Shown here one piece after another: positions 22 to 57,646 of a stretch of 64,000 nt of DNA. The stretch's first letter is position 1; the number at the start of each line of letters is the position of its first letter. The translations under genes were made by a program, and so were the position numbers. The DNA comes from Candidatus Marinacidobacterales bacterium (GTDB lineage: Bacteria; Acidobacteriota; Vicinamibacteria; Marinacidobacterales; SMYC01), in contig CBDCYI010000005.1 of NCBI GenBank assembly GCA_965224085.1, positions 1,120,001 through 1,184,000 on the forward strand, written 5' to 3'. Under the pieces are notes generated by a model. That model was given only the letters and a program-made list of their open reading frames with translations, did not search any database and was not told the origin of the DNA.

Positions 22-1479
22 TTGCTGATACGCTATGGCGTGAAACCGTCCACTCCTCTGCTGTCCGGCCTCGTCGCTTTCGTCAAACGGGATTGCCCGA
101 CCTGCGAGCTCGTCGTGCCAGTTCTTTCGCAAATCTCCGCGAAGGAAACGCTGACGGTCTATACGCAAGATGATCCGGCCTTCCCGCCGGGTATCCCGGC
201 GGTAGATGACACGTCCCTCGAGCAGTCGTGGCACCACCAGATCGAGATCGTGCCGACGCTCATCCGCGTGCAGGGCGGCGAAGAGCGTGGGCGCGTCTTG
301 GGTTGGCACCGTGAGGAATGGGAAGCGCTCTCAGGCATCCCTGCGCTCGGGGCCGGCCTTCCCGGGCTTCGCCCAGGATGCGGCTCGCTCAGCGTTGATC
401 CTTCGCGTGTACGGGAGCTCTCGGTGCGCTTCGGCGGCTCCAAGCTTCGCGCACGCCGTGTCGAGCTTGCCGCGCTCGAAGACGAAATGGAGGCCATGTA
501 CGCCCGAGGCTGGAGCGACGGGCTGCCAATCGTGCCCCCGACGGAGTCGCGTGTGCTTGCGATGCTCGAAGGAACGACGCGTGCGCCCGACGACGTTGTA
601 GCGATTGTCCCGCCCGATCTGGTGGAGTGCACCGTCGAGAAGGTCGCGATCAACGCCGTGATGGCCGGCTGCAAACCCGAATACTTGCCCGTCGTGTTAG
701 CTGCTGTGGAAGCCGTGTGCACGGACCGCTTCAACATGCACGGTGTTATCGCCACGACGATGGGGGTCGGGCCGATCGTCGTCGTGAACGGTCCCATCCG
801 CCGCGCGATCGGGATGAACTCCGGGATGAACGTGCTCGGGCAAGGCAACCGCGCCAACGCGACGATGGGACGCGCGCTGCAGCTCGTGGTCCGAAACGTC
901 GGCGGTGGACGCCCAGGAGAAGTCGACCGCGCGACTTACGGAAACCCCGGGAAGCTCGGATTCTGTTTTGCGGAAGACGAGGAAAGCTCGCCGTGGGGAC
1001 CGCTATCGGCCGACTTCGGCGCCGAGCCGGGCACGAGCACAGTCACGGTGTTCGCCGGTGAAGGGCCGCGCAACGTCATCGACCAGAGGTCGCGGGAACC
1101 GGTGTCTCTGTCGCGCAGCCTAGCTGCCACGCTTCGCTCCTTGCAGCACCCAAAGCTCGCCATCGGCTATGACGCGATGCTCGTCGTTGGGCCCGAGCAC
1201 GCGCGCGTTCTCAAAGCGGCCGGCTGGAGCAAAGAGCAGCTCATCGCAAAATTGATGGAGCTCTTGACGATTCCGGGCGAGGAGATGATGCGCGGCGTGG
1301 ACGACATCGCCGAGGGCATGCCCGAGTCGTTTCGCAGCCAGCCCGTGACCAAGTTCCGTCCGGGCGGCCTTCTTGTCGTCCACTGCGGCGGTAGCGCCGG
1401 CCTCTTCTCCGCTATCCTCGGCGGCTGGGCGAGCGGCCCGAAAGGTAGCCAGCCCACGGTTCAGGAGATTCGACCATGA
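22..1479 (+). CDS. Thioredoxin-like (CxxC) domain fused to the conserved 'GWSDGLPxVPPT' domain typical of UGSC-selenoprotein partners
   Basis: N-terminal CPTC motif; GWSDGLPIVPPT, AINAVMAGC and GNRANATMGRAL motifs; AAGGAG before TTG at 22 (GTG at 40 is an alternative start); overlaps the next gene (ATGA). Confidence 0.75.
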   Translation: MLIRYGVKPSTPLLSGLVAFVKRDCPTCELVVPVLSQISAKETLTVYTQDDPAFPPGIPAVDDTSLEQSWHHQIEIVPTLIRVQGGEERGRVLGWHREEWEALSGIPALGAGLPGLRPGCGSLSVDPSRVRELSVRFGGSKLRARRVELAALEDEMEAMYARGWSDGLPIVPPTESRVLAMLEGTTRAPDDVVAIVPPDLVECTVEKVAINAVMAGCKPEYLPVVLAAVEAVCTDRFNMHGVIATTMGVGPIVVVNGPIRRAIGMNSGMNVLGQGNRANATMGRALQLVVRNVGGGRPGEVDRATYGNPGKLGFCFAEDEESSPWGPLSADFGAEPGTSTVTVFAGEGPRNVIDQRSREPVSLSRSLAATLRSLQHPKLAIGYDAMLVVGPEHARVLKAAGWSKEQLIAKLMELLTIPGEEMMRGVDDIAEGMPESFRSQPVTKFRPGGLLVVHCGGSAGLFSAILGGWASGPKGSQPTVQEIRP

Positions 1480-2009
1480 CGAACGAACCTCGCACTGTGC
1501 TCGATCCGACGAGCGAGCAAAAGCCCAAGCACATCCCGCGAGCGCCACGCCTCGCGTCTTTCGAGAAGCGCACCATCGGCTTGCTCGACATCAGCAAGCC
1601 GAAAGGAAACGTCTTTCTCGATCGCGTCGAGCAAGAGCTCCGAGCGCTAGGGGCCGCCGTGGAGAGGTTCCAGAAACCGACCTTCGCCAAGCCGGCGCCG
1701 GTCGATCTCCGGCACGAGATCGCCACCCGGTGCGATGCGGTCGTCGAAGCGCTCGCCGACTGAGGAAGCTGCACGTCGTGCAGTGTGCACGACTCGGCGG
1801 AGCTCGAAAGCCGGGGCGTCCCCACCGTCTTCATCGCGACCGAGCCCTTCATCGACGGCGCCGAAGCGCAGGCGAGAGCGCTCGGCGTCGAGCCTATCGG
1901 TGTGTTCGTACCGCACCCCATTCAAGATCGAACCGACGACGAAGTCCGCATCATCACGGCGGACGCGATGGCGAAGATCGTGACCGGCTTGACCACGGGA
2001 CAAACCTAG
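1476..2009 (+). CDS. UGSC-motif selenoprotein (177 aa, Sec at codon 96)
   Basis: ORFs 1476-1763 and 1785-2009 are in the same frame, joined by TGA 1761-1763, reading EALAD-U-GSCTSCSVHD; hairpin downstream of the TGA. Confidence 0.85.
1775..1793 (+). promoter_or_regulatory. Candidate bacterial SECIS for the UGSC protein
   Basis: GTCGTGCA-GTG-TGCACGAC perfect 8-bp stem, 11 nt after the TGA. Confidence 0.7.
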
Positions 2010-53998: not shown

Positions 53999-56719
53999 TT
54001 ATCTCAATCTAGCGAGCTCCGAAGCGCTCAGCTTCGCCGCCGGTCCCTGTACGAGCGCGTTGAAGAGCAACTTGAACGCCGCCGGTGTTTGCGTTCGAAA
54101 ATCCACTTGGCTCCCGAGCGCCACGACGCTTCCTTGCCCGACGTCGAAAGCGACGACACTCGCTTGATCGCGAAGAAGCTCACCGCCGAGAAGCCATCCG
54201 CTTGCGACGAGGTCCTCTTCGTCTGGATATTTGGACACAACCTCGGACGGAATTTCGAAATCGGGCTTGAGGCGATAGGCCTGATCGTGGCGGAAGAAAA
54301 CGGGCCAGCGCTCCGGCATGCCGAAGGCGATCGGATGGTTCGGGTTGTATTCTTGCTCCAGCAGCGACCCGGGGCAGTAGAAAACAGAAGTCGGATCGAC
54401 GACCCGGCCTTCGATCGCTTTGATGAGCTGCGCCGGGCTCTCGAAAGCCTCCTTGAACATGCGATCCGCTTCGCGTGCGGAGACCGAAGGGCGCGGGTCG
54501 GCGGGCTCCGGCCCACGTCGGCGGCGACGAGGTGCCTCCGGAAGAACGGGCTCGATAGGCAGGTCGAGCAGATCGCGGGCGGTTGCGACGGCGTTTCCTA
54601 TCGCGACGAGGGTGCCGCCATTTTTTACGAACTGACCGAGACGCTTCCAACCGGCTCGACCGATCCCATAGGCCCATCGCCACTCCTCGGAATGGCGAGA
54701 CGGCGATAATCCGTTTACCATTCGCTGCTTGGTCGTTCCCGCCGGCAGCAGAATGACGTCATATTTCTCCGCGAGGTCCGCTTCGAAATCCGTCGAGGAC
54801 ATGACCGCGTGATCGAACTCGTATTGTTCGAGCAGCCACATGAGCCAACCGGCCGGCATGTTGTTGGCGGCCCTGTAGAGACCGACTCGCGTCGGGCGCT
54901 TCATGCGAAAGCCTTCGACCCGCGCCGCCCGATCCGAGGCCAACACGGGAAGGCCGGTCTCCTTCGCGACCGACTCGAGAACGGACAGGGCTTTGCCGGT
55001 CGGAGGCACGAGCCAGGCGCCCGGGGCAACGATCTCGCCGGACAGCTCGAGCTCCGACCCCGCACGAAAGACCGGGACCCCTTCTTTCGAGAAACGATTG
55101 AGCGCGAGAAATCCGGCGTTCGAATCCGGCGGGACGACGTAGGCCCATTTGGGCCGGCCCGGCATCGGTAAGAGCGCCGGCTCCACTTTGTCGACGCTCG
55201 TAGTCGAAACGCGTAGCGGCTCGTCAATCTGCTCAACGGTAACACCCATCAAGTATCCGAGCGTATGCGCGGTCACGTCATAGGGAGGAATGGGCGGTCC
55301 GCCAGGGTAGTAGCGGAGATCGGGATATTCCTGCACTTCGAGCATCGTTTTTGCGAAAGCGCCGTAGGGTTGGTCGAGGGGAATAACCCAAGAGCCCTCC
55401 GGAAAGTCCCTTCCGTCCGCGTGGAAGGGCGAGCTCGCCCGATGAATCTCGACCTCGCCCGTGTCCAAGATGTCGAGCAATAGGAGCGTCGCGTAGGGAT
55501 CACGCTGCTCGTTCGGAATAACGAAGGCAAAAGGCGGCTCGTCGTGCTCCACCCAGTCGCGATGGATGTTGTAGAAGTTCTCGAGCCATGTTGTGCGATA
55601 TTTCGCGAGATGGGTGAGGCCTCCGAAAACGGCCGTGATGCCGTAATCCACGATCTGTCTGAGCCGCCATTCCGTTTCCGTATAAGGCCGCGGGAAGTTC
55701 CACCGTTTCTGTTGAGGGCCGAGCGGTTGGCCGTTCGGGCTCACAAAGGGGTCGGCGATATTAGCACTCGCGATCTCGGTGAGGATGCGCGGCTGGCCAT
55801 GATAGACCATGTATTGGCGCGCCGGCGTCCAGAGATCGTATTGGGTGTCGTAAGTGACGCCGTCTTTGCCGGCCGCGATGAGAGCGCCCGCCATCGCTAG
55901 ACCGAGCTGCGCTTGTTCTTCCACGATCAAAGGATGAATGTTTCCATCATAGGGGTCCTTGAACGGCGGAACGAAAATGCGGGCGCCCGTCGGGCCCATC
56001 TGATGCATGTCGTGCGTGACCGTCGGCTTGTAGACGTTTTGCACTTTCTCCAAATTGAGGCGCGTCTCGACTTGCGTGAACATGAACCAGTCGCGGTTGT
56101 CATCGTGGCCGACATATTTGTGATAGAGGTCCGGATAGACGCGGTCGTAGGGCGTATCTTTCGTTTCGTACCAGTGGTCGATGACCATCACCTGACCGTC
56201 CGGATTTTGGGAAGGGACGTAGAGAAGAACGGTGTTGTCGAGGATCTCCTGGATCTTTTTGGAGTCCTCGGTGGCTAAACGATGGACGATGAGCGGCACC
56301 GCTTGCCCGTTGCCGACTTCCGTCGAGTGGATCGTGGCGTAGAGGAAGTAGAACGGACGACCTTCTTCCGCCAGAGCCATCGCCTCGCTCTCGTCTAGAC
56401 CTCGAGGATCCGCCAAGCGCCGGTTGATCTCGACGAGGCGATCGAGACGGGCCAGGTTCTCCGGCGAGCTGATCTTGAGGAGCACATAAGGGTTGCCTTC
56501 GGTCGTCTTTCCGAGCTCCTCGTAGAGCACCCGATCCGATTCCCCCGCCACGTGCTGCAAATATTCGAGCACTTTGGGATAGCGGGCCATCTCGCCGTCC
56601 GTACCGAGACGAAATCCAAAGAACTCTTCGGGCTCCTGGATGGATTGTGCGGCGGCGGTAACGCTCATTACCGTCATCGCGATAGCCGAGAGCGCGAAAG
56701 AGCGAGCTATGCGGGACAT
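53999..56719 (-). CDS. Secreted M14 zinc carboxypeptidase-family protein
   Basis: Signal peptide, IHSTE, NPDG, DDNRD, DMHQM. Confidence 0.85.
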   Translation of the reverse strand: MSRIARSFALSAIAMTVMSVTAAAQSIQEPEEFFGFRLGTDGEMARYPKVLEYLQHVAGESDRVLYEELGKTTEGNPYVLLKISSPENLARLDRLVEINRRLADPRGLDESEAMALAEEGRPFYFLYATIHSTEVGNGQAVPLIVHRLATEDSKKIQEILDNTVLLYVPSQNPDGQVMVIDHWYETKDTPYDRVYPDLYHKYVGHDDNRDWFMFTQVETRLNLEKVQNVYKPTVTHDMHQMGPTGARIFVPPFKDPYDGNIHPLIVEEQAQLGLAMAGALIAAGKDGVTYDTQYDLWTPARQYMVYHGQPRILTEIASANIADPFVSPNGQPLGPQQKRWNFPRPYTETEWRLRQIVDYGITAVFGGLTHLAKYRTTWLENFYNIHRDWVEHDEPPFAFVIPNEQRDPYATLLLLDILDTGEVEIHRASSPFHADGRDFPEGSWVIPLDQPYGAFAKTMLEVQEYPDLRYYPGGPPIPPYDVTAHTLGYLMGVTVEQIDEPLRVSTTSVDKVEPALLPMPGRPKWAYVVPPDSNAGFLALNRFSKEGVPVFRAGSELELSGEIVAPGAWLVPPTGKALSVLESVAKETGLPVLASDRAARVEGFRMKRPTRVGLYRAANNMPAGWLMWLLEQYEFDHAVMSSTDFEADLAEKYDVILLPAGTTKQRMVNGLSPSRHSEEWRWAYGIGRAGWKRLGQFVKNGGTLVAIGNAVATARDLLDLPIEPVLPEAPRRRRRGPEPADPRPSVSAREADRMFKEAFESPAQLIKAIEGRVVDPTSVFYCPGSLLEQEYNPNHPIAFGMPERWPVFFRHDQAYRLKPDFEIPSEVVSKYPDEEDLVASGWLLGGELLRDQASVVAFDVGQGSVVALGSQVDFRTQTPAAFKLLFNALVQGPAAKLSASELARLR

Positions 56720-56891
56720 AGGGCGGTCTCCTCGTCACGAATGTGGACGCTATGGGTCGACAGCATATTTCGACCAGCACCGAAAATCAACGCCCGGCAG
56801 GAACCCTCCGCCGCAGGAAAAAGCCATTGCATCAACGTTAGGCTTGCTAGAATGTGTCGTTCTCAATGAACAAAAGGGACAAAGGAGGAGC

Positions 56892-57581
56892 ATGGCAAGC
56901 TTGCAAGAACGTCAAAACGCGCATCACAACGTTCTACGCCATTTCGTCGAAAAGGGCCACGCGCCACTCTACACAAAATTGGCGGAAACACTCAGCGTCG
57001 CCCCCGATACCGCGAGGCGGCTTCTGCGCGAGACCACGGTCGAAAGCCCTTTCTCGTTCGCTTGGCTCACGCCGGACACCGACTTCGTAGGCGCATGGGC
57101 ACCTTTTTCCAACCTTCCGAGCCATAACGCTATCAGCGTCGAGGGGGTCCAGAAATGGTATGGCCAGTGAGGGATCGAAGCGCTGGCCGTGAGCCAGCTC
57201 TTCCCCGGTAAAGAGGTCACGATCGACACCCGCTGCTTGGAATCAGGCGACCCCATTCGGATCCGCATGCGCGACTCGGACGTGCTGGAGGTCACTCCCG
57301 AGACCGCCGTCGCCCACGCCAATGTCATGATGGATAAATGGGGCCAGCCCTCGTGGGCGTTCACGTGAGCTCGCATGAATCTCTTCCGGTCGGAAGAGAG
57401 CGTGCGCGCGTGGGCGGATTTCGACCCCCAGACGGACAAAGCCATCAAACCCGTCCGCGAGTGGGCGGGGATGGTGACGGGAGCGCGTGTGTTTCAAAAG
57501 CGGCTCGAGAACGACTTCGTCGAGAAGAGCGAAGAATACGCCACCGAAGCCCTGGGAGCACTCGGCAACGCCTTGAGCTGA
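56892..57581 (+). CDS. MerB-like (alkylmercury lyase fold) protein with two selenocysteines (229 aa; U93, U159)
   Basis: AGGAGG RBS; one frame through TGA 57168 and TGA 57366: PFSNLPS...WYGQ-U-GIEAL...TRCLESGDPI...AFT-U-ARMNLFRSEESVRAW. Confidence 0.85.
57182..57198 (+). promoter_or_regulatory. Candidate SECIS 1 of the MerB-like gene
   Basis: GCTGGC-CGTGA-GCCAGC 11 nt after the TGA, extended by GAAG/CTTC. Confidence 0.65.
57380..57399 (+). promoter_or_regulatory. Candidate SECIS 2 of the MerB-like gene
   Basis: TCTCTTCC-GGTC-GGAAGAGA 11 nt after the TGA. Confidence 0.75.
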
Positions 57582-57646
57582 CGAAAGCGCCGCGATGACG
57601 CTCTTCGCCTATATCTTCGGTTGGGGTGCTCGATCGGCACAGACAG

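Follow-up and report, generated by a model that had tools for sequence, protein, structure and literature searches.

The stretch of DNA analyzed here, referred to as the window, comprises 64,000 nucleotides of a Candidatus Marinacidobacterales bacterium genome (contig CBDCYI010000005.1, positions 1,120,001 to 1,184,000), and its forward strand holds a gene for a MerB-like protein at positions 56892-57581 that is read through two internal TGA codons. The gene encodes 229 residues, the coordinates including the stop, and runs from the ATG at 56892 to a TGA at 57579-57581. Re-reading the frame located its sole interruptions at TGA 57168-57170 and TGA 57366-57368, as an earlier note on this DNA had described. 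A Shine-Dalgarno-like AGGAGG is read from the sequence at 56883-56888 (+), 3 nt upstream of the ATG, and the orthologues in three related genomes (G003, G005, and G011) have purine-rich GGAG-type motifs 4-6 nt upstream of theirs. A standard open reading frame (ORF) listing yields fragments only, at 56640-57170, 57189-57368, and 57375-57581. A sigma-70 promoter scan gave 0 sites, and the terminator search gave two terminator-like sites, both on the opposite strand and at chance level.

The read-through protein scored 80.6 bits against the Pfam MerB family PF03243 (cut-off 27) over residues 72-190, and the genome matches PF03243 nowhere but at this locus, with its 2 internal TGA codons. When aligned by phmmer to MerB (1s6l) and MerB2 (5c17), the protein has U93, E96, C115, and U159 opposite Cys96, Asp99, Cys117, and Cys159, the correspondence that had been proposed from the sequence. 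In MerB, Cys96, Cys159, and Asp99 are reported to be essential to Hg-C protonolysis, and Cys117 is described as buried and structural (PMC10114901). On these alignments, UGA codon 93 (57168-57170, +) is predicted to encode selenocysteine (Sec) at the MerB Cys96 position (site 1), and UGA codon 159 (57366-57368, +) Sec at the MerB Cys159 position (site 2). The Glu96 codon, GAA at 57177-57179 (+), takes the position of the MerB proton donor Asp99, and the Cys115 codon, TGC at 57234-57236 (+), that of the buried Cys117. Structure prediction had been suggested as a check, and an AlphaFold2 model made with 87 family sequences had a predicted local distance difference test score (pLDDT) of 96.3 and a predicted template modeling score (pTM) of 0.91. 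All 11 Foldseek matches in the PDB at E <= 0.001 were MerB or MerB2 (template modeling scores of 0.46-0.67), and the next match had an E of 0.71. These data identify the product as a protein of predicted MerB fold. The family invariants are G22, P71, F72, G85, Q87, W89, U/C93, E96, U/C159, F165, S167, and R204. Cys115 is present in 69/73 two-Sec sequences and Cys118 in 63/73, which places a CxxC beside the site, and the clade of the window's own gene has no C118 (CLESG).

Each internal TGA is followed by a hairpin that begins exactly 11 nt downstream, as had been claimed. Hairpin 1 has a perfect 6-bp stem (GCTGGC/GCCAGC) with the loop CGTGA, and hairpin 2 has a perfect 8-bp stem (TCTCTTCC/GGAAGAGA) with the loop GGTC. 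Folding showed that both are the upper parts of longer stem-loops that open directly after the TGA and resemble Sec insertion sequence (SECIS) elements. SECIS-like stem-loop 1 spans 57171-57206 (+), with the upper stem-loop at 57182-57198 and the loop CGUGA, and is supported by folding and pair retention. SECIS-like stem-loop 2 spans 57369-57409 (+), with the upper stem-loop at 57380-57399 and the loop GGUC, and is supported by folding and loop conservation. The site 1 fold has an energy of -19.8 kcal/mol (z -2.47), and 2/200 shuffles were equally stable; the site 2 fold has an energy of -25.1 kcal/mol (z -3.96), and 0/200 shuffles were equally stable. No comparable structure was found at the terminal TGA (z +1.03; 174/200 shuffles), which has no stem at +11 and where the homology of the relatives also stops; 57579-57581 (+) is therefore assigned as the true stop. 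Of the 179,677 TGA triplets in the genome, 458 (0.25%) are followed at +11 by a perfect stem no shorter than 6 bp, and for 55 (0.03%) this stem measures 8 bp or longer. Hairpins 11 nt past both internal TGA codons are far above chance.

The resemblance to the E. coli fdhF element that had been pointed out, in spacing and in the GGUC loop, agrees with the fdhF sequence of E. coli K-12. Both have a stem-loop right after the UGA, with an upper stem-loop from 11 nt and the loop GGUC. The stem sequences are unrelated, however, the bulged U of the fdhF element is not seen in the window hairpins, and hairpin 1 has a five-base NGUNN loop. An Rfam search at E <= 10 returned 3 chance-level matches and no SECIS family.

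A survey was used to follow the two codons and their hairpins through the family. Contigs from one genome per species were searched with a pattern, the motif just upstream of site 1, which gave at least 586 matches, at least 396 of which encode a relative. The best 80 of these at least 396 loci were analyzed, so the shares given here are not a census. One of them, L046, a pseudogene in the related genome G002, fell out of the alignment, leaving 79 loci to be counted. The residues at site 1, position 96, and site 2 are Sec/Glu/Sec in 72 of the 79, Cys/Glu/Sec in 5, and Cys/Glu/Cys in 2. Codon 93 is TGA in 72/79 related loci and TGC in 7/79, and codon 159 is TGA in 77/79 and TGC in 2/79. All of the Cys codons at both sites are TGC, one base off TGA. 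The record titles of the 80 loci name Acidobacteriota, 'delta proteobacterium'/Desulfobacterales/Syntrophales, Anaerolineales, Dehalococcoidia, Acidimicrobiia, Gammaproteobacteria, Spirochaetales, Thermodesulfovibrionales, and others. The Sec/Glu/Sec loci span several phyla, including Acidobacteriota, Desulfobacterota-type, Chloroflexota, Actinomycetota, and Gammaproteobacteria. The Sec/Glu/Sec family thus appears from these loci to be widespread and stand-alone. The Asp-to-Glu change singled out by the earlier note is present as Glu96, but it is not peculiar to this gene: Glu is invariant at the Asp99 position in 87/87 aligned family sequences.

The hairpins follow the TGA codons through these sequences. 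At site 1, all 6 upper pairs are kept in 70 of 73 TGA-bearing sequences and 5 pairs in the remaining 3, and loop positions 2-3 are GU in 73/73. Of the 7 TGC forms, in contrast, 1 retains all 6 pairs and 3 retain GU at loop positions 2-3. At site 2, the TGA-bearing sequences (n = 78) have 7/7 stem pairs in 56 and 6/7 pairs in 22, with the loop GGUC in 76 and AGUC in 2. The two TGC forms have 6/7 and 5/7 pairs and the loops GAUC and GCUC, the GU being lost in both. These comparisons indicate that the hairpin and its GU loop track the TGA and decay with TGC. In hairpin 1, 91.5% of cells are paired versus 30-58% when the partner is slid. Synonymous choice runs at about the family-wide entropy throughout the 73 two-Sec genes, with exceptions confined to the stems. 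Frozen codons lie in hairpin 2 (L164 CTC 66/66, F165 TTC 73/73, R166 CGG 71/71, and S167 TCG 73/73, counted over the sequences with that residue), and further stem codons are biased (L98 CTG 86%, S160 AGC 73%, and E168 GAA 97%), whereas third codon positions within the hairpin loops vary freely.

The genome of the window (G000; ~95% complete, 12 contigs, 60.3% G+C) was searched for the Sec machinery, a check that the earlier note had proposed. All components scored above their cut-offs: selB at 364.9 bits, selA at 550.1 bits, selD at 279.6 bits, and a tRNA-Sec with the anticodon TCA at 74 bits (cut-off 47). Among ordinary stop codons, TGA is the most frequent and closes 1242 of 2538 open frames of at least 400 codons, so TGA is not reassigned genome-wide. 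Above the cut-off, selB is present in all five relatives examined (G002, G003, G005, G011, and G012; 5/5). Among 301 sampled Acidobacteriota genomes, 2 carry the two-TGA form (G000 and G199), 14 carry single-TGA relatives, and 1 carries the no-TGA form. These tallies take in the unpublished genomes G083 (relatives and selB) and G107 and G209 (selB). selB was found in 15/16 genomes with TGA-bearing relatives versus 230/301 overall, and its co-occurrence in this sample does not discriminate. G113 has a single-TGA relative, and selB was not found in it at E <= 1e-70.

Constraint on the coding sequence extends over the whole frame. Full-length orthologues with both TGA codons were found among 61 related genomes in G003 (86% identity), G005 (73%), and G011 (68%), and G012 has the C-terminal half only, with TGA at site 2. 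In the comparison with G005, synonymous-only to residue-changing codon differences in the three segments were 26:30, 18:12, and 23:18, and synonymous-only differences are roughly equally common on the two sides of each TGA. These ratios point to purifying selection that persists past both TGA codons. The earlier note had asked whether reads show TGC or TGG, and the contigs of 4 runs from 3 studies cover both TGA codons with no other letter at either. Two contig records differ from the window at 21 and 26 positions, so the TGA codons are retained in diverged strains too. Further contigs in all four metagenome runs match just a 33-34-base stretch with 3 other letters, window positions 57365-57398, which holds the site 2 TGA and the hairpin core. 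Such matches would be expected from co-sampled organisms whose own family members share the frozen SECIS sequence.

The claim that standard gene callers miss the gene is borne out by public calls, which split the family into fragments. An exhaustive search of representative proteins gave 305 proteins at E <= 0.001, and 150 were examined. Of these, 32 end exactly at residue 92, and others begin just past residue 93 or 159. The public sets hold the family as pieces of 92, ~59, and ~68 residues named 'hypothetical protein', and a near-length search of a 90%-clustered protein set gave 1 match only because gene callers split the gene. The residues that homologues hold at the two columns had been set as a test, and they are TGA- or TGC-encoded in the 79 loci. 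In database proteins that span column 93 (n = 80), the residue is Cys in 78, Gly in 1, Ser in 1, and Trp in 0; in those that span column 159 (n = 32), it is Cys in 31, Pro in 1, and Trp in 0. Two full-length JGI/IMG calls, P0162 and P0180, have W at the Sec sites. P0162 is near-identical to the protein encoded at L050, a locus where the DNA reads TGA at the two sites, and the W in P0162 is most likely the product of a table-4 style gene call. The W residues of both records presumably stem from such calls on short contigs, and they could mislead a test for Trp.

These results bear on whether the locus is functional at all. It could be a pseudogene with two nonsense mutations, a chance row of three small ORFs with no relation to one another, the result of an error in sequencing or assembly, or a gene in a code that reads TGA as Trp or Gly. 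The fragments given by standard gene calling, the W in P0162 and P0180, and a truly decayed copy in G002 would fit such explanations. On the other hand, both TGA codons stand at identical columns in 72/79 loci across phyla, selection appears to continue past them, the hairpins are tied to them, and the contigs of the 4 runs leave them unchanged. An alternative code is further opposed by the share of long frames that TGA closes and by homologues that have Cys in 78/80 and 31/32 cases and never Trp. A pseudogene, a sequencing error, and an alternative genetic code were rejected on TGA conservation, selection, the hairpins, the contigs, the TGA stops, and the Cys homologues, and we regard a non-functional origin as highly improbable. 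It is very probable that 56892-57581 is one genuine gene for a two-Sec protein, because of the hairpins, the Sec machinery, the conservation of the TGA codons, the TGC-linked decay of the hairpins, and the frozen hairpin codons.

The two-Sec protein was compared with the known MerB relatives. It shares with MerB (E. coli R831b, 1S6L/3F0P; Bacillus megaterium MerB2, 5C17) the Pfam family, the fold, a length of ~210-230 residues, and the matching columns of both metal-binding nucleophiles, the carboxylate three residues on, and the buried Cys. It differs in having Sec at both nucleophiles and Glu instead of Asp as the acid, and in having no Cys where MerB has Cys160 beside the second nucleophile. 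The identity in structural alignments is just 14-19% (Foldseek). Against the NCBIfam equivalog models for MerB, NF033555 and NF009710, it scored 31.3 bits (cut-off 200) and 33.8 bits (cut-off 193). The columns of the MerB catalytic residues Cys96/Asp99/Cys159 hold the chemically analogous Sec/Glu/Sec.

The earlier note had stated that Sec-containing MerB-like families are on record and had placed the novelty of the gene in its context. The first part is confirmed by SaoL, but the novelty lies less in the genome context than in the whole family, which is Sec/Glu/Sec at 72/79 loci. SaoL is described as the MerB-like selenoprotein of the SAO system; its single Sec belongs to a Cys-Sec (CU) dipeptide, the Cys and Asp are kept at the other two positions, and its gene is reported to be part of a conserved sao locus that comprises nine genes and is found in strict anaerobes (bioRxiv 10.1101/2022.07.06.499078). 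As described there, the two proteins are alike in belonging to the MerB family, in being truncated by standard callers at an in-frame UGA, in having Sec at the MerB Cys159 position, and in a suspected action on organometallics other than or besides mercury. In contrast, the window protein has two Sec residues, Glu, and the context WAFT-U-ARM, in which no Cys precedes the Sec, and the 80 family loci have neither sao-like neighbors nor any others that are conserved. ABC transporter, SaoC/E/T-like, and double-cubane neighbors were not found in the window. The SaoL model NF040728 gave the window protein 32.3 bits against a cut-off of 140 and two other family members 37.6-38.2 bits. The protein is neither MerB proper nor SaoL, because the NCBIfam cut-offs are not reached, the CU motif is absent, and there are no mer or sao neighbors.

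A single-Sec MerB-like sister family with the motifs NCAWD ... FTU-A was found at loci L027-L040, with PF03243 scores of 87.6-96.3 bits. Its carriers include relatives of the bacterium studied here (G009, G054, G053, G047, G030, G032, G051, G034, G035, G046, G038, G042, G039, and G004) and 15/16 genomes of one genus, where the gene order is kept. Like the two-Sec family, the sister family falls below every NCBIfam cut-off and has Sec at the Cys159 position, followed by the identical UCUUCC-GGUC-GGAAGA hairpin in the same register. It differs in that the first two positions have remained Cys and Asp, its identity to the window protein is 24-35%, and the window's genome has no copy, its only PF03243 match being the two-Sec gene. 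Judged from this unrooted comparison, Sec at site 2 appears to go far back in this branch, and the Glu clade appears to have acquired Sec at site 1 afterwards.

According to a 2026 review, prokaryotic selenoprotein families number 119, almost all of them with a single Sec, and its table lists SaoL alone, with 1 Sec, among MerB relatives (PMC13188914). No two-Sec MerB-like protein was found in the literature searched, although the supplements to Haft and Gwadz and to two selenoproteome reviews may list more. The deep-Sep paper mentions neither mercury nor a lyase. The two-Sec MerB-like family is apparently undescribed.

The arrangement of the three residues suggests what such a protein might do. 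During translation, the stem-loop right after each internal UGA would recruit SelB with Sec-tRNA(Sec), Sec would be inserted at residues 93 and 159, and the third UGA, which has no such element, would terminate the chain. Both selenols and Glu96 would then sit where MerB has Cys96, Cys159, and Asp99. By analogy with MerB, one selenolate would bind the soft metal(loid) of an organometallic R-M, and the second would add to the metal(loid) and weaken the C-M bond. Glu96 would protonate the leaving carbon, R-H would be released, and the metal would be held between the two selenolates. At neutral pH, selenols should give the site a higher affinity and reactivity, a gain that would suit a stand-alone housekeeping enzyme for trace organometal(loid)s better than an operon for high-level resistance. 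Model chemistry lends this lyase some plausibility: selone mimics of MerB are reported to cleave Hg-C faster than thiones (PMC11639659), and selenoamino acids are reported to demethylate methylmercury chemically (PMC10114901). Methylmercury would be the lead candidate substrate, and tin, lead, or arsenic compounds are possible.

The likeliest function, by analogy with MerB, is protonolysis of carbon-metal(loid) bonds or soft-metal handling at a diselenolate/Glu site, and the organometal(loid) lyase or metal-handling activity that the earlier note had put forward, perhaps with a substrate other than mercury, may thus apply. We give slightly better than even chances to the explanation as a whole, an intact MerB-fold selenoprotein gene with MerB-like chemistry. 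For the narrower proposal that the protein may be a carbon-metal(loid) lyase, the chances look evenly balanced. The more specific picture of the Sec/Glu/Sec family as a mer-independent, stand-alone lyase for organometal(loid)s in sediment bacteria and anaerobes, acting on trace methylmercury, methylarsenite, or organotin and leaving the metal on selenium, is rather unlikely as it stands.

Several observations speak against an intact gene with MerB-like chemistry. The sister species G002, of the same genus, has a decayed copy (L024/L046; G002:C1:141316-141873) in which site 1 reads TAA and other sequence replaces the first ~50 residues, and a second broken fragment lies ~1.3 kb off at G002:C1:143145-143489. 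The gene is being lost in G002, and the decayed copy indicates that it is dispensable. Covariation in hairpin 1 is weak: 2 pairs are altered on both sides, and the scores are not above those of column shuffles. The elements show so little variation that formal covariation is weak, and the RNA-level case therefore rests on pair retention, the frozen synonymous sites, and the TGA/TGC contrast. At the active site, Glu in place of Asp moves the carboxylate by one methylene. A diselenolate should also hold Hg(II) very tightly, which makes product release the weak point. The genomic context offers little help. The earlier note had reported no mer genes nearby, and the neighbors of the gene are indeed non-mer. 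The best MerA match in the genome lies below the cut-off (361.6 versus 454.45 bits), and MerT was not found in the ~95% complete genome; a mer operon context (merA, merR, merT/P) was thus not seen, merR and merP having not been searched. Across the family, the largest neighbor cluster covers 6/80 loci, and a Pfam analysis of 129 immediate neighbors found no mer, ars, or metal-transport proteins. No MerA over the cut-off, no MerT, and a metal bound by two selenolates argue against a multi-turnover mercury lyase, and the weak point of product release keeps binding or sequestration and redox functions alive as rivals.

A binding function would make the two-Sec protein a chaperone or sink for soft metals (Hg, Cu, Cd, or similar), with the selenolates and Glu96 merely chelating. 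The Asp99Ser variant of MerB is reported to bind Cu(II) via Cys96 and Cys159, and the Cu(I)-binding NosL is described as the sole other protein with a MerB-like structure (PMC10114901). Haft and Gwadz argue that the Sec residues of the SAO system are metal ligands (bioRxiv 10.1101/2022.07.06.499078). The window's genome also shows no MerA over the cut-off or other partner to unload a product metal. A chaperone would not, however, account for the carboxylate kept three residues past the first nucleophile in 87/87 sequences, which is the protonolysis arrangement of MerB. Trafficking would also lead one to expect a metal transporter, reductase, or regulator as a conserved neighbor, and none is conserved. 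Insertion of Sec at two sites is costly and more usual for catalysis. On balance, a pure chaperone or sink is unlikely, though it deserves weight.

A redox function is the other rival. Sec93 and Sec159 could pass through a diselenide-diselenol cycle, or form a selenenylsulfide with Cys115/Cys118, and a non-metal substrate would be reduced or isomerized. Prokaryotic selenoproteins are said to be mostly redox proteins (PMC13188914), and the CxxC near the site in most members (C115 in 69/73, C118 in 63/73) would suit such a cycle. Flavin/pyridine-nucleotide oxidoreductase genes adjoin the family gene in 4 Dehalococcoidia-type loci (L081, L086, L087, and L088), and electron transfer flavoprotein (ETF) genes in 2 loci. 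These oxidoreductase neighbors are limited to one lineage, however, C118 is lost in the window's clade, and the protein matches MerB, not a thioredoxin-like protein, in its fold and at the three key positions. We therefore consider a redox enzyme distinctly unlikely, and MerB-like chemistry at the diselenolate/Glu site remains the favored explanation.

The gene is flanked in the window by an M14 peptidase gene (divergent), a gene for a PD40/amidohydrolase protein (convergent), and one for a DUF255 thioredoxin-like protein, and synteny is confined to the genus. A small ORF (MTLFAY...) opens thirteen bases past the stop codon, at window positions 57595-57625. This ORF runs for 161 residues in G003 and 156 in G002 (no Pfam family) and is recognizable in the window for the first ~nine codons only; the window stretch is the remnant of a lost downstream gene.

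Other selenoprotein genes of the genome were sought with a scan for a TGA plus hairpin with open frames on both sides. The scan is unspecific and gave 303 candidates, 36 after a filter on third-position G+C (GC3). A Pfam scan of 34 of them, the gene's own two sites being left out, identified 4 clearly known selenoprotein types and 2 uncertain ones. The selenoprotein candidates from the scan and Pfam are an FdhA-like molybdopterin oxidoreductase (G000:C5:2096959-2100015, -), a peroxiredoxin with TPG-U-T (G000:C9:281223-281744, +), and a UxxC redoxin with a DsbD_N domain and W-U-PYC (G000:C11:982319-983428, +). A MetE-like protein with a TGA in HL-U-RGN (G000:C4:516497-517759, +) came from the scan and is uncertain. 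The window itself holds a UGSC-family selenoprotein gene at 1449-2006 (+) with the motif AD-U-GSC and the TGA at 1761-1763 (PF24696, 154.8 bits), and an 8-bp hairpin with the loop GUG starts 11 nt past this TGA. The FdhA-like, peroxiredoxin, redoxin, and UGSC genes have stems 10-14 nt past the TGA and loops of GUU or GUG, and the hairpin design of these four genes is that of the MerB-like gene. The selD match (G000:C5:1545162-1546073, -) sits in a 774-residue open frame, ~2x the size of the selD model, which suggests that SelD is fused to another domain. A repeated element occurs in at least 14 places in the genome (e.g., C5:1299412 (+), C4:1580950 (+), and C9:778832 (+)) and has a 174-codon frame that ends in TGA, a hairpin CCGCCC-GCGT/GTGC-GGGCGG 11 nt past this TGA, and a 234-residue ORF on the opposite strand. 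It was rejected as a selenoprotein on the lack of a Pfam match in the frame and is probably a mobile or repeated gene whose other strand is read.

These data add a family in which Sec takes the positions of the two catalytic nucleophiles of an enzyme. It is a large family, with a relative encoded at no fewer than 396 loci in the one-genome-per-species contigs, and it is missed by annotation pipelines and by metagenomic merB surveys because the public sets hold it as fragments. The frozen CUCUUCC-GGUC-GGAAGAG element, common to the single-Sec sister family, is a simple nucleotide signature for finding members. The gene is also a natural case for two SECIS elements in one short mRNA and a model for Sec/Cys exchange. 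Methylmercury degradation without a mer system is described as still being worked out (PMC10114901). The family offers a testable candidate for mercury cycling, a selenoenzyme of MerB fold that stands alone in genomes of Desulfobacterota-type bacteria, Chloroflexota, Acidimicrobiia, and Acidobacteriota. If it is indeed a lyase, merB-based surveys of demethylation potential would have missed the family entirely.

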